From Nemertoderma westbladi (lineage: Eukaryota; Animalia; Xenacoelomorpha): a DNA stretch of 54,160 bases. This document shows positions 28,501-53,510 of this stretch, piece by piece. Position 1 is the stretch's first letter. Each line of letters opens with the position of its first letter. Position numbers and translations under genes: made by a program. Where the stretch lies: the NCBI GenBank assembly GCA_032718475.1, contig JAUCBJ010003262.1, positions 1-54,160 of the forward strand. Reading direction: 5' to 3'. The notes beneath the pieces are model-generated. The model saw only the letters and a list, made by a program, of their open reading frames with translations, was not told where the DNA came from and ran no database searches.

Positions 28501-29660
28501 TGGACAGTCTCCTGCATCTGCCCGAGCAGGATATCCATCCCCCGCCGTCCCTCGTCCACCCATTCGACCGCCGAAGCGGGAGTCGCCAACGTTGTAGCGG
28601 GTGGACGATGGACAATGGACGACAAATTATGAATATTTCGCTCGGGACCCAGGACCTGAACTGTCTCTGGGGCAGTTCTACGGGGCACAGGTAGCTTAGT
28701 GCTATGCAGAGGGAATTTAGAGGTAACTTCAGGGAGCACAGGGGTGTCTATCACCGAAGGGGTGATTTCGAGAACAGGCCTAATTATTTCAGGCTCATCT
28801 ACTATAGTAGGGAGTCTTTCTATTTTAATTATTTGGTCTGTGGGTTCTGTACTGCCTAAGTTGGTGCTATTTAGTTGCCTTCTAACAGCTGGAGGCAAAT
28901 CAGGCAATTTCTGACGGTGGAATGTTCTTTTACGTCTGCTTAGACGAGATCTATTTCCTTTGCCTTCAGTATCGGTGGTATCGCCTTCCTCAGATGATGT
29001 ATATCCCTGCCTTTTGGGAGTAGATCGATTCATCATCTGCATATTACTAGCTGTTAACTGTTTATTTATGCAGTCTTGATTCTCCTGAATGTTTTCTAAT
29101 TCTAATAGGGTGGTTTCTTCAGTCGCTCTCCGTTCTGCTTCTGCCACTGCCTCTGCCGCCTTTCTTTCAGCTTCGGCCGCTTTTGCTTCTGCCGCTGCCT
29201 CTGCCGCCTTTGCCTCTGCCGCTGCCTCTGCCGCCTTTGCCTCTGCCGCTGCCGCTTTTGCCTCTGCCGCTGCCTCTGCCGCCTTTGCCTCTGCCGCTGC
29301 CTCTGCCGCTGCCGCTTTTCTTTCTGCTTCTGCAGCTACCACTACTGCTTTCTTTCTGTCTTCTATACGTTTTTTCTTTACTTGTTCTTCTTGGACTCGT
29401 GTCAGGCGGAGTTGTTCATCAAATTTAGCCTGATTCGCAGCCCTCATTTCCACATCGATGGCATCCAACACAAGCTTGGTTCCTTCGCTATTAGGGCTAA
29501 GTCCATCTAACCTTCTTCTCAATTCGTCATCACCTAAAAAACGTTGATAGTCCGACAGATAGATGTCAATGGCATCCCTCTTATGCGGTTTCTCTGCTGT
29601 CACTTCACTCTCGGTTGTATCTAGTAGACTGTCTGACAGGTTCTGCTTTGCGTCAGACAT
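25530..29660 (-). CDS. Element 1 Gag-protease polyprotein with deleted RT / most RNase H / integrase (1376 aa)
   Basis: KFNGDEMKWLPF capsid-like region; three knuckles CVLCDGPHRLNAC, CYNCLRRGHQRRTC, CAKCGAKHHILLH; protease ALLDSGS; AVRTRVGW; then directly QWRYCP..N..DIASRG and YSSWNRL; no YxDD or DDE motifs. Confidence 0.93.
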   Translation of the reverse strand: MSDAKQNLSDSLLDTTESEVTAEKPHKRDAIDIYLSDYQRFLGDDELRRRLDGLSPNSEGTKLVLDAIDVEMRAANQAKFDEQLRLTRVQEEQVKKKRIEDRKKAVVVAAEAERKAAAAEAAAEAKAAEAAAEAKAAAAEAKAAEAAAEAKAAEAAAEAKAAEAERKAAEAVAEAERRATEETTLLELENIQENQDCINKQLTASNMQMMNRSTPKRQGYTSSEEGDTTDTEGKGNRSRLSRRKRTFHRQKLPDLPPAVRRQLNSTNLGSTEPTDQIIKIERLPTIVDEPEIIRPVLEITPSVIDTPVLPEVTSKFPLHSTKLPVPRRTAPETVQVLGPERNIHNLSSIVHRPPATTLATPASAVEWVDEGRRGMDILLGQMQETVQQFKGTVRESRLELQEVQQSIALERDKLVNTQKGIPPPPVTMCQPVRSEVSHAQGVEPTRIYTASEIETPIVNPIKGNYRPVDNDIPYRTDHNPRNLYTDNSILNNTMAQESFTRQMARTEARQAVKVGEIVKFNGDEMKWLPFNEYYKDNIQNSVLSNGEKLRYLIECLEGSPKSMALKFIGHPDGLRQVWDTLNIRYGNRTNIARYLYAKLMAPQKFLSSGIIEFSDEIQEICRQLDWLGKSHEYQNSMVVGALASTLPKGGVGTRWDKKVLYMMEQQRRDPTMTDLMSFLDREVKLQLLRQSREKTLENKVSEKPVSRRRVTPVCYADDGESQTSQGEDSGKDTDRSYYVNKMPKDQVSKSESRPNDRREPVQKTLPTSPKRIQVRKPEERTSVHHIAQVKVSNIKPKCVLCDGPHRLNACDKFLRKSLKDRREVMWDKRLCYNCLRRGHQRRTCYSDARCAKCGAKHHILLHTEFERNSPSQVSESELHVQFSDVNDTDQSEMEGFYTDEFSDENESCYLINTTAVYRALIYEKDTDSDLTLTTSDQQPSWKAPTSNIGIREFPVVQLRVHGPQKSYIVNALLDSGSTGTFIDRELAEDIFAGQPKFRTKLNMSGIMQVWNSTVAADYYIGELSTPQDKLGEYSIRSVKMVAIKNFATTQVEPYNWDEDDHAQQLNIPRFDTDYPGVQILIGQNAHEALETLEKRPTQPQPLQTYAVRTRVGWYLTGPSRRTLRERLLQDRVCQVSEWEDDTSEGDDPTEGTPYSSDNDNLNSNVDQWRYCPKTMNTTDIASRGATPQELTDTTDRLGEPDFLSKEDEWPPHLTPTEIRPAKGAEKVKPKTRTGGAELFEPGIDLSVLHIARDDAVDLDLPTASGSFMKIRESDWSSGTSDVSQGLSPLLQRATDHYSSWNRLCDAVIYFERCFYRHYSRTKRKPGIVFRMQRLNHPVGRLCLPEGNGGLSGNCGRQDSLPTTTSLILQTSRDSIT

Positions 29661-30980
29661 GCTTATGTGTACAGTTGAAGGTCTACTGCCGTATTACAGT
29701 CTGAGCAAGTCTAGTAACTCAGTATTAACTGCTAGCCCAGTAATTAATTACCGGTACTGCTACTCAGTGTAGCGTGATATATATAATATATTAGAATACC
29801 GGTATGCTTATAGTATATATAACTATTATTACAGACTAGGTTTATCACCGAATACCGGTATAATTTTAGCACAAATATATATAAATATATAATAGGCCTA
29901 TCGTGGATACCGGTATGCAGTTTACACTTATAGTGTATATATATAAGTATAATTACAGACTAGAATTAATTACAGAATACCGGTATGATTTCAACCTAAA
30001 ATTTATAGAAATAAATATAATAAGCCTATTGTAAATACCGGTATGTCAATTATTTTAGAATAATTGAATTTCTGAACTTTAGGGTTACTTGGTTACTTTA
30101 ACTTACTTTATTACCGTTATTTAAGCAGTAGTCCAACTGATATTGAGACCTAATTGTTATATGGTAGGCCTACTATTTATAAATCGTTAGATTTGATTTA
30201 TAATATATATATACCCGTTTTAATGGGTTTAGTCAATGTTTGAAATAAATGTTATTATTTCTGGGGTAATCACTACACAAAGCGGTACGCTTTCAGTGAA
30301 GTGTTACGTACAGGACACTAAAACAAATGATTCTAATTTACCTAAGTTACTTAATACTACAAATTACGTACAATTCGGGTGAGATTACAATCTCTAAATA
30401 AACACAAAAATTTACAAATACGCAAATACGAATTTCAGGGTAATTTTACAAGAAGTCTACAAACCAGCCTAACAAAGGGTTAGAAAACTGGTTATTACAA
30501 CGGACAGGGTACTACGGTATTTGAAAATAATAAGTAGTAGTAAATACACTGCGTTGTCCAGATAGGAAAATACCACCGCCTGACGACCTATAGCCGTATC
30601 GCTATAGGTTCTACGTTATGTATCACGGAGTGTTCCTACCTAGAAGTTAATAGAGCTAATCGAACGTGCCTATCAACCACTTTACAACACAAATATAATG
30701 CCTACACTAATTACTTTCGGTAAGCACTGTACACTAAACCCTAAATTAGGTACGAGTACTTGTACAACAGATAATCAGTAGTTAAATATACTTGAACAGC
30801 TAAAAGAACCACGGCATCTGCTGGAGTGACCGGTGCACAAAATCACCAGTCTTTACCTACGCCAAGCAGCCCGTGTAGTACCGGGGTTAATTTAACTATA
30901 GCGGTATGTATAACAAACACAATTATTGTAGGAACAAACTTGGGGAATGAATGTTGCGAATAATCGCATAAACTCTGAAT

Positions 30981-31906: not shown

Positions 31907-31918
31907 TATATCCGTTAT
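31907..31918 (-). promoter_or_regulatory. Element 1 PBS position, non-tRNA (sense ATAACGGATATA), complementary to LTR 32649-32660
   Basis: Flush with the 5' LTR end; no TGG; 12/12 complement inside its own LTR. Confidence 0.8.
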
Positions 31919-33162
31919 TGTTCGCGCTTTCAGACCTTTGGCAGTTTAACCCGCCAAATTATGATGTCTTCTAGATAATAAATCACTTTTAGCCTATGAC
32001 AAGTATTTAATTCACTACACTAGTCGAAACCAATCTGTGCGCGATCATTCACCCGCTGGATATACCCGGGAGATTGGGTTCGACGGCTTAATCTTATTGC
32101 TATGTAAGCCTAATGTATTATTCGACTGACAGTATTATATAATCTCTGACAATATTATTCACCTTCGGGGAATATTAACAGTTCCATTAGGACGTGGCGC
32201 TCTATCTATATAAACAGAGTTATGACTTAAACTACTCACAACGATATGGCTTAGTTACAATTCACATATATGGCGCATTCTTTAGGAAATGCTTCGTTAT
32301 CAGTCTCACTCATACACAATGCTGCACAATACTGCACACAGATCTGCCGATCTTCACTGATTTTAGTCACATATAAAAGGAACACGGACCGAATCATGTA
32401 GGGTCTATCAAATAACATTAGATTCACTTCAAACCACTCAACATAGGTCGCAATCATTTATCTGTAACCTTTCTCTCTTACCTTCGGTATATCAAGAATA
32501 TTGGGTTTTCGGGGTTATTTGTCGTTATTCCAAATATAATAATTCATCAACCATATTATGAAGAACTGACAGTAAATAGCAATATAACAATATAAAAGTA
32601 TGCACAGTGTTACACAGTATGCAGTGTATGCAGTACTGCAGTATGCAGATAACGGATATATGTCCTTATAATTAAGCCTACTAGTGTAGGGCTAAAGCAG
32701 AAAAGCACAAAATACTCCAAAGCCGTTCTTCCTGGCTTAGAATCACCAACAACACTGAAAAGAATAACTATAAGAATACCAGCTACCCTTATTCCACGAA
32801 GCTCCCGTCCAACACAGAGAAAGAGCAGTGAGATAGGAAAATTCAGTTCAGTAGCTCTGTGATAGGTCAAAATCAAAGCCAACTCAAATCCTATTGGCAG
32901 ATACAGAAAGCAGGGCTATGGGGCAACGTGGCAATATCAGCCGTTAGCCGTCGTCATGGTAGCGACACTGTTTTCAAGAGTATCGAGCTTTTACGTCACG
33001 GAATTACGGATTATGTCCTCTAAAGTACAAATACAGAAGAAATAGCTTTTATGTCCGCTAAAACACCAGTACAGCAAGGACACGGCCTTTTTATGCCTGG
33101 TAAACCAACCACAGAGTACTTTACGGGGATAATAACCGGCTAATTACGCAAAAGCTTTTACA
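31919..33162 (-). repeat. Element 1 5' LTR
   Basis: Matches 21270-22513; lies upstream of gag on the minus strand. Confidence 0.97.
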
Positions 33163-36184: not shown

Positions 36185-38108
36185 TAATTGAAGAGATACG
36201 CCTATTCCTACTATCGGAAGAGACGGTAACAATACCTGCAATATCCTACTGTAAAGTTTGTAAATCAAATCATAAATCCGACCTCCTCACCAAAACAGTA
36301 AACTCTAAGTAAGCGAATATATTGCAGTATCGATCTCTTATAACCGGTGAGGCAGAAAACAGTCTACGAGCAGACAAACTTCGATAAAACAAAATCCCGC
36401 GCAGCGAATCCTAAAATCAGGCTGACTCACTGACGGACTAAGGGGCTCGTATACTTTGCCGCGGTGTGATTTATATGGTTGGGCAAAGGGACGCTAGCTA
36501 GGTATAGAGCAGATTTGGAGATGTCTAACTAGCGGGCAAAGCACAGTACGGACAAAGTTAATTTTATATATTTCGAGGTGTAAATAATTTCTAACGCGCG
36601 TGTGTTAATTCTGAACGGTCAAAACAGTTTTGCTCCTTCACATATATAATTACTGGGTACGGTGTGCATTTTACGAATATTCTAATTTTGTAACTTGTAG
36701 GTCCAATACTCACGAATGGTAAGGTTCCTTCCCCTCTTGCGTATTTCCAGGACTCAAATTCAGGCATAAGGTTAATACTACGCCCAGAATTCGGCAATTT
36801 TAGGTACCAGGTCCCTGATACTAAGAAGAGATGTGTTAGTTTACTACTGTAGGCGTACAGGTACTAATAGCTATCCTGGCTCCTATCTAGAATTTTAGTC
36901 ACCCAGGTAGTCCGGGTAACTTCCTATTAGGGCGTTGGCGGGGACACGGTAGATGTTAGTATATCCCTGATAGCCTCAATTTATTTGCGCCTAGTGTAAA
37001 CTGCCCTACCGCCTGAACGGTACAATCCCAATTCAGGTGAAAACACAGCAACCCCCCTAGCCTACAAGTTCTGATGTAATGGACACTGTCGTACTGCAAA
37101 TAGTCGCACACACACCTGTACTTAGCAAGAGTTAAGCGTACAGTTTGCTGCACCCTAACCAATGTGTATGCCTTGTACCGGTGTGCCTACGTCCTATCTG
37201 CGTACTAGTATCTGCTCTCTCTCCCTCCCCCCCGTAGGAATGTGAAGGTCTACTGTGGGTTTTCCTGAATCAAGACAGTACAGTCCCTATGATGTAATTT
37301 TAGGCTTGCAGCGTGTCACTACGTCTACCTTTTGATCTTTTGGTCTTATACTTAGGTAGCAAGGATCGAACGCTGTCTAACCTTTCAGGCGATGGGCGAA
37401 TAACTTTAAATGGTATTGCGGGTTGTCTCTCGTCTACATTCCCGTGATGTTCCCGTTCATTGCTGCGGCCCGATCTCTAGCCGGCCATCCTGTCCCTGAG
37501 TTTGTTCACCGTAGTGAATTCATAGTAAAACAGAAAAGCTGAGAGAATATTCTGACTTTATTACAGAAGACACAATTATAATACAATGTAATCTGAGAAT
37601 AAACTAAGCACGACAGAATATTGATAAGATAATCTGAGAAAGATTGAGATATAAGATTGAGATTGTGATAACTAATGAACGAATCGCACCTTTATATACT
37701 AAATTTGTGCTGCAATCAATCGAGAAAATTCTCGATTGTTCTATGGGTTCTAACAAGGTTTTAAAGATAGCTTATTGGTCCAGCTAATATATAACTTGCA
37801 CGACATTGGTTACAATCAAATAACTACAGCCTTATTGGTACAGACAAATGCAATTAATTTGTAGCGGTTAATTTAAATGAGTTGAAATTCTGCACAAAAA
37901 ATAATTCGCACTTACTAGGATTCGAACTCGATACCTACTACACATATAATTTCCAACGCTCTACCAACTGAGCTACTGAACCACTTGACCGATAGATACA
38001 CAATAGATAGAACCAATACTAATGAGAACTCAAAGCAATCTTTACAAAGTTAATTCGAATAAAATAAAATTTTGAAAATCCACGGCATTTAGGGAATATA
38101 ATTCTATA
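36185..38108 (-). repeat. Element 2 3' LTR
   Basis: Matches 51005-52927; only difference noticed is one extra C in the C-run near 37230. Confidence 0.97.
37896..37982 (-). ncRNA. tRNA-like Pol III cassette in U3 (3' LTR copy)
   Basis: TAGCTCAGTTGGTAGAGC D-arm / A box, GAGTTCGAATCC B box, T6 run just downstream; anticodon arm and acceptor stem not intact. Confidence 0.8.
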
Positions 38109-38122
38109 CCGCTCCATGAAAA
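38109..38122 (-). promoter_or_regulatory. Element 2 PPT position (sense TTTTCATGGAGCGG)
   Basis: Abuts the 3' LTR; similar to element 1. Confidence 0.55.
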
Positions 38123-38964: not shown

Positions 38965-40479
38965 TTATCGCTTAGTAGATCGAGCCCTGCCGCGTCCTCG
39001 AAAACTGCGCACAGGTGACTTTGCTCGCGATATGGGACTAATGGGGCGAGTCACTGGTTTACTTGGGACGTTGAGAGACGGTGCAACTATTTCCTCGCAA
39101 ATTCGTCTATTTGGCATCCCAAAACCTCGACCAATTCCTCGTGACCGATCAGTTGTTGCTACAGTTGGTAGAACGTCTGGGAACGCGTGAGAAGTGGACG
39201 ACGCAGACCCAAGAGTAGCTTGCGCCCCCTGTTGATCAGCTGGTGTATGTCCCGATCCTCCTACCGGTTCTCTTGGAAGTGATACCGTATCCCGAGTAAC
39301 TCGAATGGTCGGCTCAACTCCCTTGCGTTCTTCTACATTAATAATTTTCTTTAATTGTTGGCCCACCTTCTGGACCCGTATGATCCTACCCTGCCCGTCC
39401 TCCCGAGGGTGACGTGCAGACGGCGCAACCGGAGTGGCTGGTATATTTGTCGCCTCTAGGACCTCTTCTTCCTCGAATACGCTCGCTCGTATACGTTTAT
39501 GGTAAAACGCGGCTCGGTACGCCCATGCGACGGTTAACCAAGCTCCCTTGTTCCGCTTTTCAGTTCGGAAACGATCGAATTCACCATACGTAATCCGATT
39601 AACGACTTTCTGAAAATTCCACGTGTTTTTGTTATCCGGGTGAATCTGTAACAGATACTCGCGCACCACTCGGAATCCGCTGTCGTGGGGCAAAATATCG
39701 ACAACCTCGATAAGTTCGTCATATTGAGGCATAGCGGAGATATATCCTTCCGACATCATCGTTTGAGGATTTACCGCCCAAAATCCGAGATGCGCTCTCA
39801 TCGGAAACCGTCTTCTTTGTGCCGATACATGTTCGTCGGCTAAATCTTCCCACTCATCAAATAACTTCCTCACGAGTTTTACAGATTCGTGTTCATAAGG
39901 TATGTCCCTTAGTTGGCATTCAGATGCTCGATGTCCCTTTATATTGCAATAAGTACATTGAGCCATAAATCTCCAGCAAGTATAAAAGGTATGAGACCCT
40001 TGATCCCCACACCATCCACAGATTAGCTGAGTCGTAGTAATGTGCTTTCCACTGCACTTTGCCATATGATGTCCAGCGACGCCACATTTACTACACATCG
40101 TATTGGCAGGGTACCACACTCGTTCGTATATAAGATCTCCAATCGGTCGAGCGCTTCCTCCCATACTATAATCGTAATCATCTGGGTCTATGGGTTGGTA
40201 GGTTTCTGAAGGTTGTAGGCAAACTATAGCATCTGTTGCTTCAAGTTGTCGAATCTCCGTCTGAGATTTCTTCGGGAGGTTCCTTTCTATCTCAAGAAGT
40301 TCCTCTAAAGGATCGTCGGCGATCGTAGTAGTTACTTCGAATTCATCACCAAGGTGACCGATAGGCGCGCGCGTCTGCCGTGATTCATCCGTAATTTCCA
40401 CGATACGTTCTCCTTCATAGGGTAACAATGTAAACATAGATGGTCTTTCGATAAGAGATCCCGCACAGCGAAGATACAC
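38965..40479 (-). CDS. Accessory ORF2b: triple CCHC zinc-knuckle protein with basic, disordered C-terminus
   Basis: 504-codon ORF; CSKCGVAGHHMAKC, CGWCGDQGSHTFYTC, CTYCNIKGHRASEC; no signal peptide or TM segment seen; true start uncertain (GTG 40479, ATG 40437, or frameshift). Confidence 0.85.
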   Translation of the reverse strand: MYLRCAGSLIERPSMFTLLPYEGERIVEITDESRQTRAPIGHLGDEFEVTTTIADDPLEELLEIERNLPKKSQTEIRQLEATDAIVCLQPSETYQPIDPDDYDYSMGGSARPIGDLIYERVWYPANTMCSKCGVAGHHMAKCSGKHITTTQLICGWCGDQGSHTFYTCWRFMAQCTYCNIKGHRASECQLRDIPYEHESVKLVRKLFDEWEDLADEHVSAQRRRFPMRAHLGFWAVNPQTMMSEGYISAMPQYDELIEVVDILPHDSGFRVVREYLLQIHPDNKNTWNFQKVVNRITYGEFDRFRTEKRNKGAWLTVAWAYRAAFYHKRIRASVFEEEEVLEATNIPATPVAPSARHPREDGQGRIIRVQKVGQQLKKIINVEERKGVEPTIRVTRDTVSLPREPVGGSGHTPADQQGAQATLGSASSTSHAFPDVLPTVATTDRSRGIGRGFGMPNRRICEEIVAPSLNVPSKPVTRPISPISRAKSPVRSFRGRGRARSTKR

Positions 40480-40667
40480 GTCTCGAAATATGCTAAATCC
40501 TGCTCGAGTAAAGGCATTGCTGTCTTTGCGAGCTTCGCTGTACTTTCTGATAATTCCTTTATACCAAATATAGTGTAGTCTTTGGCTCCAAATCTTTCGA
40601 ATGGCGCTGCTGCCTCCTCTTGGATATCATATCCCCATCTCGGCTCTCCTTGTATCCCTTTCTCCAT
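40332..40667 (-). CDS. Accessory ORF2a (111 aa), overlapping ORF2b
   Basis: ATG in good context ~30 nt after the splice acceptor; frame open from the acceptor. Confidence 0.55.
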   Translation of the reverse strand: MEKGIQGEPRWGYDIQEEAAAPFERFGAKDYTIFGIKELSESTAKLAKTAMPLLEQDLAYFETCIFAVRDLLSKDHLCLHCYPMKENVSWKLRMNHGRRARLSVTLVMNSK

Positions 40668-40698
40668 AATTAGGGGTGTAGTTACATAATCATTACTA

Positions 40699-40730
40699 CT
40701 AGAGGGAATACAACAGAGTTTGTAGTTAGT
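40699..40730 (-). promoter_or_regulatory. Branch point, polypyrimidine tract and 3' splice acceptor for a subgenomic mRNA
   Basis: Sense ACTAAC-TACAAA-CTCTGTTGTATTCCCTCTAG|TAG. Confidence 0.7.
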
Positions 40731-41326: not shown

Positions 41327-44300
41327 TTATTTACTAGTATTAGGTGGAGATTTGTAATCTCCAGACTCGTTACGAGTCTCTTCAAGAAGTACGAGACGTT
41401 GAGTCGGTCTGTCTACTGTACGACCGTCAATTGTCCGTACCGTCACAGTCCTTGTCACTCCATCCATAGATGGATGTGTGGCTAAAATGACACCTGTTAT
41501 CCAGAAGCGTCTTTTTAGATTCACTTCTGCCAACAGCACGTGATCTCCCGGCTTTAATGCGCGGGTGTTATTGTACCAGTTTGTTCTGGCAGAAATAGAG
41601 GGCAAATAATGGTTTTGCCATATTTCCCAGAATTTGTTAGCCAGTAGTTGCGTGATTTTCCACGCTTTTCTACCGTAACTGTCGCTTTCTATTGGAATAG
41701 AAATCGGCGTTAATGTCGTCGGTGCCTGCATAAGCAGGTGTGCTGGTGTTAAAGCAAACTGGGATTGTTTGTCATCGGGTACTAATACTATTGGTCTAGT
41801 ATTTAGTATTGCCTCGATTTCAACAAACAATGTTGTCAGTTGGTCGTCTGTTAATATGTGGTTTACTGGAATGACCTTTGCCATTGCTGTCTTTATAGAT
41901 CTAATCAGTCTCTCCCAGACTCCGCCTCTCCAAGGACTATCTGGAGGATTGAACTTCCAAACAATCTTGTGAGGTTGCAGTTCGTTTGAGATTTGATCAT
42001 GATCTAATTTCTTAAAGGCTCTGGCAATTTCATTCCGAGCACCAACGAAGTTTGTCCCTTGGTCTGAGTACAAGCATTTTACTAGTCCGCGTCTAGCGAT
42101 AAATCGCCGCAGTGCTAGTATAAACGCGTTGGTGGAAAGATCCATCACACGTTCAATATGAACTGCCCTACTGGACATACATGTGAAAATCAGTCCCCAG
42201 CGTTTTACTAGTATACGTCCACGTTTCGTATGTATGGGACCAAAGCAATCAATTCCAGTCTCTGTAAAAGGTGGTCTGAATGCTTGAAGTCGTGCTTGTG
42301 GTAGTTCACTCATTTCTTGGGTACCTATTCTAGAATGTACCTTTTTACAAATAATACACGTACGTGTCACTGAACTTAATGCTTTACTGGGTCTAATTAA
42401 TACAAATCTAGTACGTAAGTAGGAAAGACAGTGGTGTCTTCCAGCGTGTTTCAGATGTAAATGTGCGTCCAGTATCATTGCACGTTGTAGTTCGTGATGT
42501 TGCGGTATTATTATTGGGTACCTAAAGTTTGTGTTAAAGTCAATGTTTTGAAGCCGAGATTTATGACAAATCAAGCCATTATAAATAATCGGACTCCAAC
42601 TCAGTATCGGTGACGACTTGATTGGTTGACCTTGATTTATAGATGTGAATTCGCGCGCGAAATATCGCAGTTGGTAATGGCGAATTAATTTAATCTCACA
42701 CCTGTCAATCTCAGCCAATGTAAGTCGACGTGTAAAGTCTCGTTTGCCTTTAACGTATTGTACGAAACGTACAATCCACGCTAATTTTCGGCAAGCGTTT
42801 GACCAAGAGTCTGTTAAGTTTACGATACGGTCGACGTAAGTATTTGTGACGTCATCAGGTAAGTCAATGGAGAACTTGGAAGGTTTTGAATTACTAGAAG
42901 GGCCCACGGGTCCGCCGGTAAGTATTCCCTTGTTGACTGTTGATCCGTCCGGGTCTACAAGTAATTTGTCCTTCTTTGTCTTCTTACCTTGATTGTCGGT
43001 ACTTTGTAAGTCGATCGCTAATGGTGGTTTGAACTCTATGGGGTCAGCAGGTTTTGGTAAGCTTATTTTTCTGCCGACATTAATCCCAGGTTTCACCATG
43101 GGTTGTAAGTTCGGTATGTCTCTTGAGCGCAAAGTAACACCTGTATTTACATTAGCGTAGGTACTACCCACATCTGTAATACATGAGGTTTCACCATGCT
43201 TATGGTTGCTCAAGTGTGTCAAAATTGGTAGTTTGTCAATACAAGGCCGCTCCAATAGGGAAACTGCGGCTTTATCGTTAGTCAATACATTACTAGTGTC
43301 TAGTCGACTGTCTAGTAATGTGTCTGGCGATACGTCTGGTAACGTATCTGGTTGTTTGTCAATAGAAGGCCGCTCCAATAGGGAAACTGCGGCTTTACTG
43401 TTTGTCAGTGTGTTACTAACGTCTGGTGGAACATTTTGTGACATGTCTGTCAAAACGTCTGGTTGACCGTCTAGTAACGTGTCTGGTTGACCGTCTGGCG
43501 ATATGTCTGGTGTAGAAAGGCTCGCAAGTCTTCCTCTCTTGACCTTTGAAGTTATATCTTTCCATTTCGCCTTCGGTTTTTTCTTGAGTTTTGCCGCCGT
43601 CGTCTTTTTCTTTGTCTTCCCCTTTTTTGGTTTCTTGATTTCGGCGTCCTTAGGAATGGTGTTGGACTTGTTGTCGTACAACGGAGGCCAATCTTGTGTC
43701 GATTTCTGCAAGAACTGGGGTCCGTGTTGCCAAAACTCTTTGTTCTCCGGTTTACAGAATTCCTCAGGCATCATTCCTCGCGACGCAATATCAGCTGGGT
43801 TTTGTGGTCCGGGACAATGTCGCCAATCCTCCTTTATTGAACGGTCTAGAATTTCCGCGCGACGGTTAGCTACGAATGTCTTGAATTCGAGTGTGTCGTT
43901 GTTTATGTAAAATAAAACCAACATCGCGTCAGTCCAATAAAATATCTGTAAACTCGACTGTAGTTCTGTCTGTATGAGGTTCACGATGGTGGTTGACAGG
44001 GTCGCGGCTTGTAGCTCGGCTCGTGGTGTCATCATATACTTAGTAGGCATGGTCTTAGCCTTAGAAGTAATGAGCGAAACATCGAACTCGTCCGATTCTA
44101 CTTGTCTGCGCAAATACGCTGCCACACCAAAACCGTTGTCACTGGCGTCAGAAAAACAGTGTAGTTCCAAGTTGTCAGGAAATGTACTCTGTAATGGAAA
44201 GTAAACCCTGGGTATGAAATAATCCTCTAGTGAAGATAATTCCGCCTCCCAGGTTTTCCATAAGTCCACTTGGTCTGATGAAATCGGCTCGTCCCATGTT

Positions 44301-47300
44301 AGTCCATCCTTCCATATACTGCGCATATAAATGCGGGCTTGCAGTATCACTGGACTGATGAATCCTAACGGATCGAACAATCGGCTCAATTTTGACAAGC
44401 ATGATCTCTTGGTCAGTGTGTTTCCTTGACTGTCCAGTCTCACCTTCACTCGAAAGTTGTCTGTGTTTGGGTCCCAAAAGAGCCCCAACACCTTAGTCGT
44501 CGGTAGTGGTTCGAACTCTAGGTCTATATCACCACCTCCACGCTCAGTAGTTCCGAATGAGTCAACTAATTCGGCACTGTTTGAGGCGAATTTGGTGAGG
44601 TTAAAACCTCCGCCCGCCAAGCAGTCCCGTAATTGATGTGCTACTATTGTAGCACGTTCTACTGTGTCGCAACTTTGTAAACCATCATCAACGTAAAAGT
44701 CACGTTCTACAATTCTAATTATCTCTGGGTCATACAGATGTTTCTGATCTCTAGCGGCTTGCTTCAAGGCGTACATCGTACAATTTGGGCTGTCTCTGGC
44801 ACCGAAGACGCGAACTTGCATTTGGTAAGTCGCTGGTGGTAGACTTAAGTCTCCTTCCGGATACCAGAGGAACCGCAAACTGTCTCTGTCTCGCTCTAAC
44901 GCTTTCACTTGGTGAAACATCGCTTCAACGTCGCAAGTAAAGGCTACTTGACGCTGACGGAAGCGCATAATCACCCCCATAAGATAATTATTCATGTTCG
45001 GTCCATCCATCAACTCACTATTGAGGGACATTCCCTCAAACAGAGCCGCACAGTCATTGACTACGCGTACTTTATCTGATTTGTCGGGATGTCTCACATA
45101 GTGATGTGGCAGGTAGTATGTCTGGTCGGTCACTCGCTCCGGGTTAGTCATTCGGATAGCGTATCCCTTTGTCAAATATGTCTTCATCTGAGTGTTGTAC
45201 TGCAGATGGGCTTTCTCGTCCTTTAATAGACGTTGTCGGATTGAGTGTAGACGTCTTAAAGCCAGTGGGTAGTTATTTATAAGTTTAGGACTTTGGCTAC
45301 GCCATAACATCCCCACCTCGTAATGTCCGTCCTCCGTCTGTCGGATAGTATCCTCCATGATCTTTAGAGATTGTTTCTCCTGTTCCGACATACAAGGGTC
45401 GTAGCTACCAGGTTCAGCTGTATCTTGTTCTAACCACCTGATAGTCTTCTCCGTTAATTCTTTGTCCAAGGCGGCTTGTTCCAACTGATGAATTTTCAAC
45501 GCGTCATCGTCGATATCGATGGGCACTGTTGAGGTTATTGGGGTAGGTAGACTCGCAAGCCTATCATCTGTCGTCGATGGAATCTCTAGCTGATTCGTCT
45601 TCCCCCCAAGTCCTAGACTCACCTTGTGGGTTAGCTGCTCCTTGTGACTTATCATATTAGTTACCCGTCTGTCATGTTTTGTCGACTGTAGTGTAGTATG
45701 GTTCACGTCGTGTGAGAAGGAATGAATTGAATTTGTAGTTAATAAACTACATGTACTCTGTACATCGTCTTCCTCGTCACTTACGTCTAGTGTGCGCACA
45801 GGCGCTCGAGTATACCACCCTATCGGCGTTCTGCAGGCGTATGCGTTTCCTGCTACAACTGCCGATGGTCTGGTTTCCCACACCTGATGTAGGTTGAATT
45901 GGTCTGTCCCGATCAGCATTGCTACCGATCTATAATTGACAGGACATTCAGGTACACCAAGGTGTCTGAAATACTTACGGTCCTCCAGAGATTGTTCCGG
46001 CACTGGACCTAGTAGGTTACTAAAGTCCTTCGTGGCCGCAAAGGTTAGATCTCTAAAGGGCAACAAAGACCTCTCCCTCTCGCTGTGTTGCGATTTTGGA
46101 AGAAGAGAGTCTAAGTCCAACTTAACTCGTGTCACTGGTATTGCACGCTGTCCGTGCATACTACTTACTGTATAACTGACGTGCTTACCTTGTCTAAGAT
46201 CTGTTACGACGTCAGCTATCTTTTCGTCCACGTAGCTATGGGATGAGGCTGAATCTAGAATCGCATAGATCCTCTTGCTCCCTTTTGTGCCAGTAACCTT
46301 GATCGGGATTACACTGAATCCCTTCAGTTGATCAGTAGTCAGGAGCGCGATCGACGGTTGTTCGTCTCCATTGGAATATTCGTCATCGTCTTCTGATTCT
46401 TCGTCCGACGATCCGGATTGTTCTGAGAAGCAATCCTCAATATGTGTCACGAAGGTCGGAGTCGTTTTCGATTCTCGTTTTCGGTAGGCCGCATCGCATC
46501 TCGCTGCTGCTTCCGGGTGTTCCCTGGCGAAGCGTTTCGTCGGCGTGTGGCTGTCTGTGTGGAGCAGACCGTCATGGTTGCGTCCACAGGATGGACAAGT
46601 GTCGGTATTTGGGCAATCCTTGCGCACGTGTCCGTGTCGCGTACACCGCCAACAAGAGTCCAGTGGCCGTATCTGCAGCCGTCGTTCTTCCGAGTTCAAC
46701 TCGCGAAATTGTCGACAACCTCGTAACTTGTGACCAATATACCGCTTACCTAGATGTTCGCAGTATTGGCAGCCGTTGAAGTCGGTGCTGAGTTGCTGTC
46801 TCGTCTGTTTCGTCCCAATGGGCGCAGATACTCTATTACCGTCTGAGAATTGTCGTGATTCCGTCGGTGTGGCGTAAGTGGCCGTCTTTGTGGATGTTGT
46901 CTGGGGTTTTTGTCGGTTGGAGGATGGCAGTGTGATTCCTTCTGCCACGATATGTTGGTCGGTGTAGTTAGATCGAGTTTCTACTACCGCCTCCCTGGAT
47001 ATTAAAAGGTACACATCTTCTAATTTTAGGAATCCTCCCCGCTCCTCTCGCTGGTATTCGACCTTCCTCCATTCCCGACGAAGTCGATGGTGGAGTCGTC
47101 CTATTATCTTTAATAGAACTGTAGGGGTATTCCCGTAATCAAGTTGTCCAATTGATCTTAAGGTAGTGATAGCGTTCTTGATCTCGTCAGCTAGTTTTAG
47201 TAAGTCGACGGGTTTAGTGATAGCCCCTCCCTTACAGAGTTCTTCTATTACTGACCTGGCCATACTCACTGTACCTCCGTATATCGAAGTCAAACGATCG

Positions 47301-50197
47301 TACGCTAGTTCGAAAGCGTCCGGTACACCGACGAAAGTCTCCGCCAAACGTTTAGGTTCTCCTGACAACGTTTGAAGCAGGTAATTGAACTTCTCCCGTG
47401 ATGTAAAGGCGCACACGGCGATCTGGGATTCGATATAGTCTACGAAGGTATGCCAGTGTTTTGAGCTACCGGAGAACTTCGGTGGTTGTTGTACCGGCAA
47501 TCCCTGTCTGGCTGCGAATTTCGCTATCTCCTCGGCAACGTTCAGAGTTTCGCGTCCTTGGTTGGTAACTTGGTTAATATCCCTTCTTGGCGCTTTTCCC
47601 TGATACGATGTGGGGTTTGAAGGTACCGGTCTTTGTGGTTCCTTCTGGTGTCTATTGTGTTCGAATTCGGAATTTCTCGAACTGTCGGTTTGAACTTCCT
47701 CCAGACGCTCCTCGATCTGAGCCAACTTATTGACAACTGGTCGCAGAATGTCGGCGAACTGTTGTGTACTAATTGCGTCCGTTGGTTGTAACGCCTTCTG
47801 TGTTGGTGTATTCTGTGGAGGATTATCTGCAAAAGAGTTGTCTGAACGCTCGCGTTTATATTCATCGGCCGCCCCCGTTCTAAATACCTCGCGTTTCGGG
47901 TAATCCGATTCGCTCGAAGTACTACTGTCATCTGGATATGGTGGTCGACGTGCTCGCGTCCGTTGCGTCGTACTAATTCTAACGGTTCGTTTCGGAACAT
48001 CGTCTCGCTTTCGTTGTTCGGTAGGCTCACAAGTCTTCCTCGAAGTCGTAGATTGCGATGTAAACTGGTTGAATGGTCGCGTCTCCACTGTTCTCCGTTG
48101 TTCGGTAGGCTCACAAGTCTTCCTCGAAGTCGTAGATTGCGATGTAAACTGGTTGAATGGTCGCGTCTCCACTGTTCTCCGTTGTTCGGTAGGCTCACAA
48201 GTCTTCCTCGAAGTCGTAGATTGCGATGTAAACTGGTTGAATGGTCGCGTCTCCACTGTTCTCCGTTGTTCGGTAGGCTCACAAGTCTTCCTCGAAGTCG
48301 TAGATTGCGATGTAAATTGGTTTGGTGGGCGAATGACAGCATTTGAACCCAAAGGCCTTGTTGGTCGAAACGTCATTGGGTAAGCGTAGTGTGTAACGGG
48401 TTTAGGTGTCAAAGGTGGACTCACCTGTTTAGTCGTCAGTAGTGCAGGTCCGGTCAATAAACTACTACGATCCGTAATCGGTGGGTTACTTACCTTGACT
48501 TTCGGAATAGGCGACGACGTTGCTCTTGGCGGTGTAAACTCGTCCGGAATAACAAACCTGTGTTCCGTCGCACCATGGATAGGAGAAATGTTACTACTAC
48601 CCGCAATCGAAACAGGTTCCTTAGTCGTAACCGGTGCAAACATATGAGTTACCTGTGGGAATCGTTGACACACGTCTTTTACTAATTGTCGTTCCCGTCC
48701 GGGTGCTCCTACGCTTCCTTCCTTCTTCCGTTCCTGAATTTGGCGATGTCTTACCTCTAACTGGTCCAAATCATGTCCGTCACGAGATCTCATCGATCGA
48801 TCGCGGGCCTTTTGATCCAGATCTTCCTCAGCGTTCGCTAATTCTCTCGCCTTCTTCTCGAGTTCGAAATGAAGTTTAGCTGTCTTCTCTCGTTGTTCCG
48901 TTTGTTGTCGTTGCGCCTCAAACTCCGCTTGTCGTATAGCAGATTGAGCTTTTATTTGCCGTGTTCTCATTTCGGCCCGTGCTTCCGAAACTAACCTTTC
49001 TCGTTTTAATTCCGCCGCTGCCGCTGCCGTTTGTCGCTCCAGTTCGGCCGCTGCGTTTTGTCGCTCTAACTCGGCCGCCGCCGCTGCCGCTTGTCGTTCT
49101 ACCTCGGCCGCTGCCGCTGCCGCTTGTCGTTCTACCTCGGCCGCTGCCGCTGCCGCTTGTCGTTCTACCTCGGCCGCTGCCGCTGCCGCTTGTCGGGCAA
49201 TGTCTACTTCTAATCTTTCCACTTCAGCTGCTTCTAATTCAGCTTGTTCCTGTAGATGAGAGATTCTTGCTATATTCGCAACGCGTAGCTTCTCTTCCTC
49301 TACTGCTGCCTGCATCACTAGAAGTTGAGCTTGTTCTTCCATTTCTTGTCGTTGTCGGTGGAATTCTTGCTGTTGTCGAGCAACTTCTGACGTGACTATA
49401 CTTCCCTCGCAGATTTCGCTACGAATACTTACCAGCGATTGATTTAGTATTCCCGGTGCCGATTCGATTCGTACGGGTGATATTTCCCTCGTATATTCCG
49501 GCACGGTTTCCCAATCTCCGACGTCTTCGCCGCACATACGTAAGTGGTCCGTCAGGTGTTTTAATTGTCCATCCAGTCGATACAGTTCCTGTTCTTCCTC
49601 GGGTTGTAATAATTCGTCCGAAACTGACTCACCTAACAACTGGTCCGCTTGTTCCTGTTGTATCTGTCTAATCGTTGACTTAAACTGAATCAGTTTCTCT
49701 CTAGCGATCATCAGTTTCTCGAGGATTCTAAGTTGAGTATCCATGTCCTGTCTCTGTCTAGCTAGATCTTGTAGACCAATTAGGTTATCTACGGACTTGT
49801 GTACTCTACTTTGTACTCTAACCTGGAGGGTGTAGAACTCGAATCGAGACATCGGAGCGGTCAACTCGTCTAATATGCGTTGGCCTTCCCCAATACTCCT
49901 GGTTATATGCGCCATGTAACCACCGACGCTTCTAATCACACTTTCTGTGCTTCCTGCTGAACTTACCATTTCCGTTTCCCTATATCTAGGTTGCGGAACA
50001 GCCAGAAAGTCCTCGGTCCTGCCGTCGCCTCGTACTACGGCATCCGGTACTCCCGTTGGATGTACTGGTGACGCACACGGTGTAGGTTCGGTAGGCTCAC
50101 GAGTCTTCCCCTGTTGTCCTTCCGCTGCTGACTTATCCGCGTCACACGAGTCATAGTCGGTAGGTGTGTTCTTCGTATAGTCTTGTTTGTCACTCAT
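41327..50197 (-). CDS. Element 2 Gag-Pol polyprotein (2956 aa), BEL/Pao order PR-RT-RH-IN
   Basis: PKFSG capsid-like region, three zinc knuckles, ILDSAS protease, YYLPHH, RVVNDC, DVEAMFHQV, FYVDDG, HCFSDAS, PRAELQAA, WTD, NPADIASRG, HHCC, GIDCFGP, YSDQGTNF, GGVWERLI, C-terminal GPY/F-like region. Confidence 0.98.
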   Translation of the reverse strand: MSDKQDYTKNTPTDYDSCDADKSAAEGQQGKTREPTEPTPCASPVHPTGVPDAVVRGDGRTEDFLAVPQPRYRETEMVSSAGSTESVIRSVGGYMAHITRSIGEGQRILDELTAPMSRFEFYTLQVRVQSRVHKSVDNLIGLQDLARQRQDMDTQLRILEKLMIAREKLIQFKSTIRQIQQEQADQLLGESVSDELLQPEEEQELYRLDGQLKHLTDHLRMCGEDVGDWETVPEYTREISPVRIESAPGILNQSLVSIRSEICEGSIVTSEVARQQQEFHRQRQEMEEQAQLLVMQAAVEEEKLRVANIARISHLQEQAELEAAEVERLEVDIARQAAAAAAEVERQAAAAAAEVERQAAAAAAEVERQAAAAAAELERQNAAAELERQTAAAAAELKRERLVSEARAEMRTRQIKAQSAIRQAEFEAQRQQTEQREKTAKLHFELEKKARELANAEEDLDQKARDRSMRSRDGHDLDQLEVRHRQIQERKKEGSVGAPGRERQLVKDVCQRFPQVTHMFAPVTTKEPVSIAGSSNISPIHGATEHRFVIPDEFTPPRATSSPIPKVKVSNPPITDRSSLLTGPALLTTKQVSPPLTPKPVTHYAYPMTFRPTRPLGSNAVIRPPNQFTSQSTTSRKTCEPTEQRRTVETRPFNQFTSQSTTSRKTCEPTEQRRTVETRPFNQFTSQSTTSRKTCEPTEQRRTVETRPFNQFTSQSTTSRKTCEPTEQRKRDDVPKRTVRISTTQRTRARRPPYPDDSSTSSESDYPKREVFRTGAADEYKRERSDNSFADNPPQNTPTQKALQPTDAISTQQFADILRPVVNKLAQIEERLEEVQTDSSRNSEFEHNRHQKEPQRPVPSNPTSYQGKAPRRDINQVTNQGRETLNVAEEIAKFAARQGLPVQQPPKFSGSSKHWHTFVDYIESQIAVCAFTSREKFNYLLQTLSGEPKRLAETFVGVPDAFELAYDRLTSIYGGTVSMARSVIEELCKGGAITKPVDLLKLADEIKNAITTLRSIGQLDYGNTPTVLLKIIGRLHHRLRREWRKVEYQREERGGFLKLEDVYLLISREAVVETRSNYTDQHIVAEGITLPSSNRQKPQTTSTKTATYATPTESRQFSDGNRVSAPIGTKQTRQQLSTDFNGCQYCEHLGKRYIGHKLRGCRQFRELNSEERRLQIRPLDSCWRCTRHGHVRKDCPNTDTCPSCGRNHDGLLHTDSHTPTKRFAREHPEAAARCDAAYRKRESKTTPTFVTHIEDCFSEQSGSSDEESEDDDEYSNGDEQPSIALLTTDQLKGFSVIPIKVTGTKGSKRIYAILDSASSHSYVDEKIADVVTDLRQGKHVSYTVSSMHGQRAIPVTRVKLDLDSLLPKSQHSERERSLLPFRDLTFAATKDFSNLLGPVPEQSLEDRKYFRHLGVPECPVNYRSVAMLIGTDQFNLHQVWETRPSAVVAGNAYACRTPIGWYTRAPVRTLDVSDEEDDVQSTCSLLTTNSIHSFSHDVNHTTLQSTKHDRRVTNMISHKEQLTHKVSLGLGGKTNQLEIPSTTDDRLASLPTPITSTVPIDIDDDALKIHQLEQAALDKELTEKTIRWLEQDTAEPGSYDPCMSEQEKQSLKIMEDTIRQTEDGHYEVGMLWRSQSPKLINNYPLALRRLHSIRQRLLKDEKAHLQYNTQMKTYLTKGYAIRMTNPERVTDQTYYLPHHYVRHPDKSDKVRVVNDCAALFEGMSLNSELMDGPNMNNYLMGVIMRFRQRQVAFTCDVEAMFHQVKALERDRDSLRFLWYPEGDLSLPPATYQMQVRVFGARDSPNCTMYALKQAARDQKHLYDPEIIRIVERDFYVDDGLQSCDTVERATIVAHQLRDCLAGGGFNLTKFASNSAELVDSFGTTERGGGDIDLEFEPLPTTKVLGLFWDPNTDNFRVKVRLDSQGNTLTKRSCLSKLSRLFDPLGFISPVILQARIYMRSIWKDGLTWDEPISSDQVDLWKTWEAELSSLEDYFIPRVYFPLQSTFPDNLELHCFSDASDNGFGVAAYLRRQVESDEFDVSLITSKAKTMPTKYMMTPRAELQAATLSTTIVNLIQTELQSSLQIFYWTDAMLVLFYINNDTLEFKTFVANRRAEILDRSIKEDWRHCPGPQNPADIASRGMMPEEFCKPENKEFWQHGPQFLQKSTQDWPPLYDNKSNTIPKDAEIKKPKKGKTKKKTTAAKLKKKPKAKWKDITSKVKRGRLASLSTPDISPDGQPDTLLDGQPDVLTDMSQNVPPDVSNTLTNSKAAVSLLERPSIDKQPDTLPDVSPDTLLDSRLDTSNVLTNDKAAVSLLERPCIDKLPILTHLSNHKHGETSCITDVGSTYANVNTGVTLRSRDIPNLQPMVKPGINVGRKISLPKPADPIEFKPPLAIDLQSTDNQGKKTKKDKLLVDPDGSTVNKGILTGGPVGPSSNSKPSKFSIDLPDDVTNTYVDRIVNLTDSWSNACRKLAWIVRFVQYVKGKRDFTRRLTLAEIDRCEIKLIRHYQLRYFAREFTSINQGQPIKSSPILSWSPIIYNGLICHKSRLQNIDFNTNFRYPIIIPQHHELQRAMILDAHLHLKHAGRHHCLSYLRTRFVLIRPSKALSSVTRTCIICKKVHSRIGTQEMSELPQARLQAFRPPFTETGIDCFGPIHTKRGRILVKRWGLIFTCMSSRAVHIERVMDLSTNAFILALRRFIARRGLVKCLYSDQGTNFVGARNEIARAFKKLDHDQISNELQPHKIVWKFNPPDSPWRGGVWERLIRSIKTAMAKVIPVNHILTDDQLTTLFVEIEAILNTRPIVLVPDDKQSQFALTPAHLLMQAPTTLTPISIPIESDSYGRKAWKITQLLANKFWEIWQNHYLPSISARTNWYNNTRALKPGDHVLLAEVNLKRRFWITGVILATHPSMDGVTRTVTVRTIDGRTVDRPTQRLVLLEETRNESGDYKSPPNTSK
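48012..48322. repeat. 84-bp in-frame tandem repeat in gag, ~3.7 copies
   Basis: NQFTSQSTTSRKTCEPTEQRRTVETRPF repeats, essentially identical at DNA level. Confidence 0.95.
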
Positions 50198-50993
50198 TTC
50201 AGTAGTTGTAAGTCAAGTAAAGTGAGTGTCAAAGTATCGAGTTTACCGTATTTTATCTAAACGGTACTAATTACAGTCTTATAAAATTAGCCTACCGGCC
50301 GATTTTATAGCAGATGGATAAAATTAGCCTAAACGGCCAATTTTACAGCAAATAAATGTCACGGAATAAGTATATAATAAAATTAGCCTAGCGGCCAATT
50401 TTATAACAAATAAATCGGATAACGATATGCGTTATCAAAAGGTAAATTAAATACAATAATACGGACTAATTCAGCAATGAACAAAGAAATCGTACGGAAT
50501 GCATAAATACTTGAGACAGTGGAACCCACAATAATTTTAACTAATACGGTAATGCCTAATTTATTTATGCAACTTTTCGAACTCACCCACTCCAATAATT
50601 CTCCAGAAAAACAGATTCCCAGATACAAACCGAACGTGAACCTTTCCGTTTTTAACGTTGCGGACGAAACGCGATTTTCCCAACCAAAGTTGTTGGGTTA
50701 TCTATCTCCCAAACTTGCTAAACACGGTCTTGCTCCCGTTACAGCCTAGAAATGAGTTCTGAATCCTGAAAAAACAAAAGAGTTAGGTTTTACTTTACGA
50801 AAAATTTTGTACCGGTACAATATGGTATTTAAACCCCTTTAAACACCGGTATTCAATTCCAAAAATATTACACGCGGTTCAAATCAAATTTTATTTCAAA
50901 ATATTAGCACTTAGCTAATCAAATATAAACTTTTACCTCAAAATACAAAATTTTCAAATAACTTTAGTCCTACCGAACCGTAGTTCAGTAAAA

Positions 50994-51004
50994 CACATTC
51001 CTAC
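50994..51004 (-). promoter_or_regulatory. Element 2 PBS position, non-tRNA (sense GTAGGAATGTG), complementary to LTR 52053-52063
   Basis: Flush with the 5' LTR end; no TGG; 11/11 complement inside its own LTR. Confidence 0.8.
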
Positions 51005-52507
51005 TAATTGAAGAGATACGCCTATTCCTACTATCGGAAGAGACGGTAACAATACCTGCAATATCCTACTGTAAAGTTTGTAAATCAAATCATAAATCCG
51101 ACCTCCTCACCAAAACAGTAAACTCTAAGTAAGCGAATATATTGCAGTATCGATCTCTTATAACCGGTGAGGCAGAAAACAGTCTACGAGCAGACAAACT
51201 TCGATAAAACAAAATCCCGCGCAGCGAATCCTAAAATCAGGCTGACTCACTGACGGACTAAGGGGCTCGTATACTTTGCCGCGGTGTGATTTATATGGTT
51301 GGGCAAAGGGACGCTAGCTAGGTATAGAGCAGATTTGGAGATGTCTAACTAGCGGGCAAAGCACAGTACGGACAAAGTTAATTTTATATATTTCGAGGTG
51401 TAAATAATTTCTAACGCGCGTGTGTTAATTCTGAACGGTCAAAACAGTTTTGCTCCTTCACATATATAATTACTGGGTACGGTGTGCATTTTACGAATAT
51501 TCTAATTTTGTAACTTGTAGGTCCAATACTCACGAATGGTAAGGTTCCTTCCCCTCTTGCGTATTTCCAGGACTCAAATTCAGGCATAAGGTTAATACTA
51601 CGCCCAGAATTCGGCAATTTTAGGTACCAGGTCCCTGATACTAAGAAGAGATGTGTTAGTTTACTACTGTAGGCGTACAGGTACTAATAGCTATCCTGGC
51701 TCCTATCTAGAATTTTAGTCACCCAGGTAGTCCGGGTAACTTCCTATTAGGGCGTTGGCGGGGACACGGTAGATGTTAGTATATCCCTGATAGCCTCAAT
51801 TTATTTGCGCCTAGTGTAAACTGCCCTACCGCCTGAACGGTACAATCCCAATTCAGGTGAAAACACAGCAACCCCCCTAGCCTACAAGTTCTGATGTAAT
51901 GGACACTGTCGTACTGCAAATAGTCGCACACACACCTGTACTTAGCAAGAGTTAAGCGTACAGTTTGCTGCACCCTAACCAATGTGTATGCCTTGTACCG
52001 GTGTGCCTACGTCCTATCTGCGTACTAGTATCTGCTCTCTCTCCCTCCCCCCGTAGGAATGTGAAGGTCTACTGTGGGTTTTCCTGAATCAAGACAGTAC
52101 AGTCCCTATGATGTAATTTTAGGCTTGCAGCGTGTCACTACGTCTACCTTTTGATCTTTTGGTCTTATACTTAGGTAGCAAGGATCGAACGCTGTCTAAC
52201 CTTTCAGGCGATGGGCGAATAACTTTAAATGGTATTGCGGGTTGTCTCTCGTCTACATTCCCGTGATGTTCCCGTTCATTGCTGCGGCCCGATCTCTAGC
52301 CGGCCATCCTGTCCCTGAGTTTGTTCACCGTAGTGAATTCATAGTAAAACAGAAAAGCTGAGAGAATATTCTGACTTTATTACAGAAGACACAATTATAA
52401 TACAATGTAATCTGAGAATAAACTAAGCACGACAGAATATTGATAAGATAATCTGAGAAAGATTGAGATATAAGATTGAGATTGTGATAACTAATGAACG
52501 AATCGCA

Positions 52508-52657
52508 CCTTTATATACTAAATTTGTGCTGCAATCAATCGAGAAAATTCTCGATTGTTCTATGGGTTCTAACAAGGTTTTAAAGATAGCTTATTGGTCC
52601 AGCTAATATATAACTTGCACGACATTGGTTACAATCAAATAACTACAGCCTTATTGG
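52508..52657 (-). promoter_or_regulatory. Candidate Pol II promoter in LTR: three CCAAT boxes and TATATAAAGG
   Basis: Sense CCAAT at 52653-57, 52624-28 and 52593-97; TATA at 52508-52517; TCATTAGTT follows. Confidence 0.6.
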
Positions 52658-52714
52658 TACAGACAAATGCAATTAATTTGTAGCGGTTAATTTAAATGAG
52701 TTGAAATTCTGCAC

Positions 52715-52801
52715 AAAAAATAATTCGCACTTACTAGGATTCGAACTCGATACCTACTACACATATAATTTCCAACGCTCTACCAACTGAGCTACTGAAC
52801 C
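52715..52801 (-). ncRNA. tRNA-like Pol III cassette in U3 (5' LTR copy)
   Basis: Same sequence as 37896-37982. Confidence 0.8.
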
Positions 52802-53510
52802 ACTTGACCGATAGATACACAATAGATAGAACCAATACTAATGAGAACTCAAAGCAATCTTTACAAAGTTAATTCGAATAAAATAAAATTTTGAAAATCC
52901 ACGGCATTTAGGGAATATAATTCTATAGTTAGTATTACCTGTAAACGCAATAATAACAAATAATCACATACAATATAGCTAACACACTTGCGCACATGTT
53001 AGACATTTTGGAATTCAAAATTCTAAAGGGCTCCATAAGTTTTTGATATTTTGGTATAAATTGCTTCTAAAATAAGTACGGGTCTGTAGTTAGAATCATG
53101 TATCAATACAAATTGAACAAAATATAGCCAAATGCAGAACTATAAGAACAAAATTTAGATTCAAGAAAGCGGAACTCTAAGTACAAAATATAGCCATGGG
53201 TGGTACTCTACAGTAAGAACAAAGTCTAGCTACAGGGTTACAGCTACATTAAAGTAAAGTTCACTTACAGTACGTCATGACGAATAATTAAAGACCTGTT
53301 TTTTCTACAGTACATTTTGAGCAACTCTATCAGCAACTTAGTGAGCATGTCAGGTTGCCGATCAAGTTGCTCTATGTAAACGCGAAGTTTGTTGCTGTAA
53401 AAGATGCCTCATATAACGGAGACTAAAAGTTAATGTTACTCAAATTAAGTTGCTAGTTGCTGGCCAAATTGTCCAAAACGTCCGGCAACCTAGAGTAACT
53501 TATAGCAACT

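Follow-up and report, generated by a model that had tools for sequence, protein, structure and literature searches.

The window analysed here, a 54-kb stretch of DNA (54,160 nucleotides) from Nemertoderma westbladi, contains an intact BEL/Pao retrotransposon, designated E1, located at positions 36185–52927 on the minus strand. The element is 16.7 kb long and is organized as follows:

51005..52927, minus strand: 5' LTR, 1923 nt, termini TA...TA
36185..38108, minus strand: 3' LTR, 1924 nt, with an additional G in the run that adjoins the 3' side of the 11-mer described below
52928..52932, minus strand: target-site duplication CTAAC, 5 bp, partner at 36180–36184
41327..50197, minus strand: gag-pol ORF without stops, with Pfam-type domains and motifs
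38965..40626, minus strand: extra ORF behind pol, 553 codons from stop to stop, three CCHC-type knuckles
38109..38118, minus strand: short purine-rich tract before the 3' LTR, ending GGAGCGG

The LTR termini (52926–52927 and 51005–51006) were TA...TA, not TG...CA. The flanks were compatible with a 6- or 7-bp duplication as well as with the 5 bp listed, in which case the LTR end would shift by 1–2 nt. The two LTRs showed a single difference, a G in the run that follows the 11-mer directly on its 3' side; by this near identity E1 is young. The lone difference (52052 / 37233) comes right after the cut predicted below, slippage or a sequencing error being equally possible. The gag-pol ORF of 2961 codons encodes DUF1759, zinc knuckles, a protease (DSA), a reverse transcriptase (RT, YVDD), an RNase H (D/E/D/D motifs), an integrase (HHCC, DDE) and DUF5641, with domain matches to DUF1759, Peptidase_A17, the integrase zinc domain and DUF5641. 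Gag comes first and the order protease, RT, RNase H, integrase is that of BEL/Pao elements. The catalytic motifs of the RT and RNase H are intact, and the Pao domain PF05380 was present in all of the 120 homologues listed for E1 (32–42% identity). An 84-nt tandem repeat lies within gag (48012–48331). The extra ORF behind pol was not env-like, and no homologue of it was found among 260 candidates of similar length. As E1 is intact and young, the ends of its RNA should be directly mappable.

The junction between the 5' LTR and the internal region does not have the appearance of a tRNA-binding site. The features concerned are the primer-binding site (PBS), its complement in the LTR and two predicted hairpins:

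50994..51004, minus strand: PBS GTAGGAATGTG, no spacer, no TGG
52053..52063, minus strand: predicted self-primer CACATTCCTAC, LTR position 865–875, exact complement of the PBS
37234..37244, minus strand: copy of the 11-mer CACATTCCTAC in the 3' LTR
50968..50993, minus strand: predicted 11-bp hairpin directly after the PBS, 4/300 shuffles as stable
51019..51045, minus strand: predicted hairpin near the LTR end, 8/300 shuffles as stable

The LTR ends in ...CAATTA and the PBS GTAGGAATGTG (51004–50994) follows immediately. An earlier note on this DNA had described this arrangement, with neither spacer nor TGG, and the sequence of E1 bears it out. The exact complement which the note had placed at 52053–52063 was confirmed, with the second copy in the 3' LTR; the window held no further copies of the PBS 11-mer or of its complement. 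The predicted primer lies 1048 nt from the LTR end, and the match is in register with that end. Dinucleotide shuffling of the LTR recreated the 11-mer in 2 of 5000 trials, and for 10 of 12885 internal positions of E1 the LTR contains an 11-nt complement, in agreement with the chance of about 5e-4 estimated in the note. Neither a ribozyme nor another known RNA family was found at the 11-mer when positions 20000–54160 were searched against Rfam, which gave two weak matches elsewhere. We propose that E1 likely starts its minus-strand DNA from a segment of its own RNA and not from a tRNA, a reading to which we give a probability of about 0.85 from sequence comparisons.

Another stretch of the LTR could conceivably supply a primer. 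Positions 52725–52819, together with their copy in the 3' LTR, are tRNA-like (a weak tRNA-Leu with relaxed ARAGORN settings), with no other copy in the window; they may be the remnant of a SINE, or else a polymerase III element. It is very improbable that this stretch is transcribed by RNA polymerase III into an element-encoded primer. An A-box-like motif at 52794, a B-box-like stretch seen by eye with a T run behind it, the weak tRNA call and 8 nt that pair exactly with bases located 14 nt beyond the LTR end would fit such a role, but the 3' end of this RNA would not be complementary to the PBS, default ARAGORN and Rfam were empty, and the LTRs of the second element described next showed no A- or B-box match.

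This second BEL/Pao element, E2, absent from the earlier note, spans positions 33162–21270 of the window on the minus strand:

31919..33162, minus strand: 5' LTR, 1244 nt, TG...CA
21270..22513, minus strand: 3' LTR, 2 mismatches with the 5' LTR, duplication GTATT
31907..31918, minus strand: PBS ATAACGGATATA, no spacer, no TGG
32649..32660, minus strand: predicted self-primer TATATCCGTTAT, LTR position 503–514, exact 12-nt complement of the PBS
25530..29693, minus strand: ORF with BEL/Pao Gag and protease, no RT, most of RNase H and integrase missing

Judging by this ORF, E2 is non-autonomous. It shares only about 25% identity with E1 in Gag and protease. The 12-nt match, 730 nt from the LTR end, was reached in 1 of 5000 shuffles and at 2 of 9393 internal positions. 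When the PBS and LTR were swapped between E1 and E2, only 5 nt matched each way. Hairpins were again predicted right after the PBS (2/300 shuffles as stable) and near the LTR end (19/300). Since E2 played no part in forming the hypothesis, its match is an out-of-sample result. A chance origin of the 11-nt match in E1 is hardly credible: that match was picked after the fact from a 54-kb window, which would favour chance, but it was repeated out of sample in E2 and, with other letters, in the relatives described below. The purine tracts before the 3' LTRs were alike (GGAGCGG at 38109–38118 in E1 and GGAGCAG at 22514–22523 in E2), though the LTRs are unrelated.

The rest of the window held several other features. 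Two 252-nt direct repeats (99%) within 5265–6903 surround a 235-codon ORF with no Pfam match, which by eye looks like a fragment of a non-LTR endonuclease; no self-complementary site was found in this repeat (5265/6652). An ORF with a Fam20C kinase domain at 9150–10415 is probably a host exon. Inverted copies of one repeat, one of them with an RT fragment, were located at 13516–14287 and 33701–34631, and tandem arrays at 1493–2132 (unit of about 38 nt), 19974–20481 (about 15 nt) and 53475–54160 (about 19 nt).

Relatives were collected with an alignment of E1 and 14 homologues, which gave 77 metagenome loci, belonging to 52 families, from the best 80 of 508 confirmed stretches; a search of viral contigs for relatives found none. 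Sixteen families without a usable leader were left out and 36 were examined. Among these, 19 were self-complementary, a count that does not represent independent draws because the families are related. Only two of them (L018 and L048) had a contiguous match as in E1 and E2. In the 17 others (L002, L003, L004, L006, L008, L009, L012, L016, L019, L020, L023, L026, L028, L035, L049, L071 and L073) the PBS complements an exon–exon junction inside the LTR, formed across a GT-AG intron, with intron lengths of 71–478 nt where the scans measured them. The remaining families comprised two of the tRNA type, one possible case (L041:180–380, a 10-nt spliced primer across a 37-nt intron, seen by eye), one artefact (L063, whose 24-nt match was dropped as part of a long inverted repeat) and 13 without a class call.

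The LTR end had been fixed beforehand by direct repeats in seven metagenome loci. Five of these (L002, L008, L009, L019 and L026) showed a PBS match of 10–15 nt only across a GT-AG intron of 71–97 nt, a match reached in 0–2 of 200 shuffles each. The two others (L027 and L076) had a TGG site, which we take to be of the tRNA type, and no LTR or spliced match. The other classified loci were found by scans of leader regions in which the scan itself chose the LTR end, so that the match is partly selected. L006 was first seen by eye, its exact complementarity being checked afterwards; L012 is weak (7/40 in the null); L003, L023, L028 and L049 came from a scan restricted to sites starting with GT or AT. 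A primer built by splicing was also sought in E1, where the best candidate had 9 nt (71/200 shuffles), and in E2, where it had 11 nt (6/200); both were shorter than the contiguous matches and were rejected.

Each PBS was then compared with the LTRs of all elements in a set of 20. The own LTR matched over 10–15 nt in the 18 elements without a tRNA-type site and over 4 nt in the two with one, this diagonal being partly selected for the loci whose LTR end the scan chose. Among the foreign PBS–LTR pairs, 6/380 reached at least 10 nt, and two of these came from a pair sharing the same primer. The pairing is genuine and specific, and it is conserved although its letters change. The earlier note had suggested a self-priming BEL/Pao lineage and proposed looking for covariation of PBS and LTR among relatives, where a PBS kept next to a lost LTR complement would have spoken against it. 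The opposite was observed: in E2 and in 19/36 families the pairing was kept while its letters changed, in support of such a lineage.

The position of E1 among these loci depended on the model. In the mixture-model tree, E1 fell in a clade of 19 rows (SH-aLRT 95), whose 16 other labelled loci were all self-complementary, and two spliced loci and one tRNA-type locus grouped together outside this clade. With a simpler model, the neighbours of E1 were insect elements and a tRNA-type locus. E1 forms a long branch, as does its integrase. The contiguous locus L048 was the best RT/RNase H match of E1 among labelled loci (42%), and the family of L048 was its best integrase match (39%). A single clade for the contiguous E1, L048 and L018 was rejected (AU p 2e-6). 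The trees are unrooted, and the direction of change between the forms is not readable from them. On balance we lean slightly towards the view that a large part of animal BEL/Pao elements has left tRNA priming, that the ancestral primer was spliced in the 5' LTR copy, and that E1 and E2 are intron-free descendants, the switch having taken place more than once.

The predicted primers have several features in common. They were distinct in 20 of the 21 elements compared, and the match measured 10–15 nt in all 21. Those of E1 and E2 end in AC or AT; among 16 elements whose detection involved no filter on the ends, the 3' end was AC in 14 and AT in two. A poly(A) hexamer lay downstream of the primer end in 14/16 elements, and within 3–119 nt in 12 of 14 metagenome loci. 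If cleavage of the RNA takes place at the primer end, this layout would be required for the new DNA to overlap the 3' LTR copy. It would also account for the retention of the intron.

These features bear on a different explanation, that a host RNA (a tRNA half or a small RNA) is the primer and that the LTR complement is a switch masking the PBS or circularising the RNA. Priming by half-tRNAs without TGG is known in Ty1/copia lineages, according to passages of PMC6317226, and the L008 site has a TGG at +2. Yet a separate host RNA would be required for each of the 20 distinct predicted primers, an LTR complement is missing from the two tRNA-type relatives, and a masking helix leaves the fixed register and the common AC/AT end without a reason. 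We consider this explanation unlikely and retain self-priming.

If E1 primes itself, the primer could be the 5' end of the RNA or an internal segment. The signals relevant to this choice are the following:

52511..52657, minus strand: candidate upstream promoter, three CCAAT boxes (52657, 52628, 52597) and TATATAA (52517)
52376..52381, minus strand: AATAAA located 3' of the TATA promoter and upstream of the 11-mer
51800..51805, minus strand: AATAAA 247 nt downstream of the 11-mer

The strong CCAAT/TATA cassette, reported in the earlier note as a promoter, was located about 450 nt upstream of the 11-mer. The note had also seen an initiator-like sequence overlapping the 11-mer, and indeed the 5' edge of the primer in E1, TTCACAT with its A at 52062, fits two initiator consensuses. 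CA was present at the primer 5' edge in 14 of 21 elements where 4.4 were expected, in a window chosen after seeing the data. Over the same 21 elements, the full consensuses were not enriched (3/21 against 1.2 and 7/21 against 4.7) and none had a TATA box some 30 nt upstream of its primer. A DPE at strict spacing gave no match in E1. In folding predictions, 10 of the 11 pairs of E1 had a probability of 0.93–1.0 when the RNA starts at the 11-mer, and the helix had a probability of 0 from LTR position 1 or 436, long-range folds being unreliable. The caveat of the note that the primer may be internal stands, and the CA enrichment tips slightly towards a Tf1-like 5'-terminal primer. We see about an even chance, from these sequence signals, that the primer is the 5' end of the RNA, as in Tf1.

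With an internal primer, the RNA would begin near 52490, at the TATA promoter. Cleavage would yield a capped fragment of about 435 nt, the last 11 bases of which would act as the primer. Priming could occur in cis, poly(A) then being added after 51805, or in trans on the second packaged RNA; every cis model requires read-through of the AATAAA at 52381 in the 3' LTR. This version of self-priming has in its favour the CCAAT boxes and the TATATAA of 52657–52511 and, in L020, L035, L073 and L004, bases upstream of the core primer that out-pair control segments with the leader (p 0.003–0.01). It would also avoid ultra-short first exons in the spliced relatives, where a 5'-terminal primer needs first exons of about 4–12 nt, which is unusual. 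The upstream pairing was, however, not significant in E1, where a second 7-bp helix upstream of the 11-mer was rejected (216/300; p 0.78), or in E2 (p 0.20), and the combined p rose from 0.003 to 0.07 once L035 and L073 were removed. The limit of the matches at 10–15 nt in 21/21 elements, the CA at the primer 5' edge and a helix not favoured in the longer E1 RNA also speak against it. We hold an internal primer to be somewhat less likely than a 5'-terminal one.

We set out the 5'-terminal version of self-priming as a model. The genomic RNA would most likely start with the 11-mer or no more than two bases away from its first base (52063/52062), and the 11-mer would fold onto the PBS. A cut after ...CCTAC, probably made by the RNase H of E1 by analogy with Tf1, would produce a free 3' end at the LTR boundary. 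The reverse transcriptase would copy back to the cut and then transfer to the 3' LTR copy, the stretch from the cut to the downstream poly(A) site serving as overlap. Plus-strand synthesis would copy the primer, by which PBS and primer would stay exactly complementary. As most relatives pair only after removal of the LTR intron, their primer would be built by splicing: only the 5' LTR copy would pair with the PBS, and the unspliced 3' copy would preserve the intron. E1 and E2 would represent the intron-free form of the self-primer. If the ancestral primer was spliced, reverse transcription would not be possible without host splicing, and in relatives with the spliced form it would be linked to the spliceosome of the host.

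The closest functional precedent is found outside the BEL/Pao superfamily. In the ICTV description of 2021, the Belpaoviridae are tRNA-primed, with an 18-nt PBS for the 3' end of a host tRNA, LTRs of 0.2–1.2 kb and genomes of 4.2–10 kb; the PBS is a descriptive trait, the family being defined by its proteins (PMC8742986). E1 resembles them in the set and order of its domains, its LTRs and its target-site duplication, and departs from the profile by its self-complementary 11-nt site, its 1.9-kb LTRs, its length of 16.7 kb and its extra zinc-knuckle ORF. The 18-nt tRNA-type PBS is absent from E1 and E2, which have no TGG after the LTR. Cer7 of Caenorhabditis elegans, of BEL/Pao type, is described as encoding its own tRNA-like primer, whereas the tRNA-like stretch in the E1 LTR does not end in a PBS complement. 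In passages of PMC5445492, the fungal Ty1/copia element GalEa has no tRNA PBS and a conserved hairpin site for which no LTR complement was found; E1, E2 and their relatives have one, which changes together with the PBS.

The main text of the metazoan survey PMC3118150 contains nothing on primer, PBS, tRNA, intron or splicing, and BEL/Pao self-priming was not found in passages of PMC554778, PMC6238403, PMC8220671, PMC3601003, PMC5445492 and PMC13524379. Our literature search, which covered titles and abstracts of mainly freely available papers, found no description of it either. Mechanisms of this class are known; a published case among BEL/Pao elements was not found in this search, and what stands out most is the spliced form. 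If true, self-priming would be extended to a third LTR superfamily and the official description of BEL/Pao elements as tRNA-primed would need correcting. It would also explain why many BEL/Pao elements are missed by PBS finders, and self-primed elements would escape control by the host tRNA supply or by tRNA fragments.

Self-priming has been predicted from sequence alone for the plant elements Tcn1 (Ty3/gypsy) and, from Ty1/copia, TAR, Houba and Osr-1, which belong to the two other superfamilies and for which passages of PMC6317226 mention no spliced primer. In Tf1 the initial 11 bases serve as primer after cleavage by RNase H (passages of PMC7175516), in a three-duplex structure (likewise from parts of bioRxiv 10.1101/2022.12.06.519325 and PMC4600332). 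Of the two flanking duplexes of this 'pretzel', the one with the LTR end was compared across families, and folding predictions gave no general signal for it: the Fisher p was 0.31 over 16 elements (0.023 for E1 alone). As far as the source passages go, Tf1/Tf2 of Schizosaccharomyces pombe, Tj1, Tosmo1-3 and the Tf1/sushi group share with E1 a PBS of about 11 nt next to the 5' LTR which complements their own LTR, and use no tRNA. The Tf1/sushi elements are Ty3/gypsy chromoviruses, whereas E1 has BEL/Pao domains and no chromodomain match. Their primer consists of the first bases of the mRNA; the predicted primers of E1 and E2, which may have the same place, lie 1048 nt (E1) and 730 nt (E2) from the LTR end, and most BEL/Pao relatives, unlike the Tf1/sushi elements, form the primer only across an intron. 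E1 most likely works like Tf1 without belonging to Tf1/sushi.
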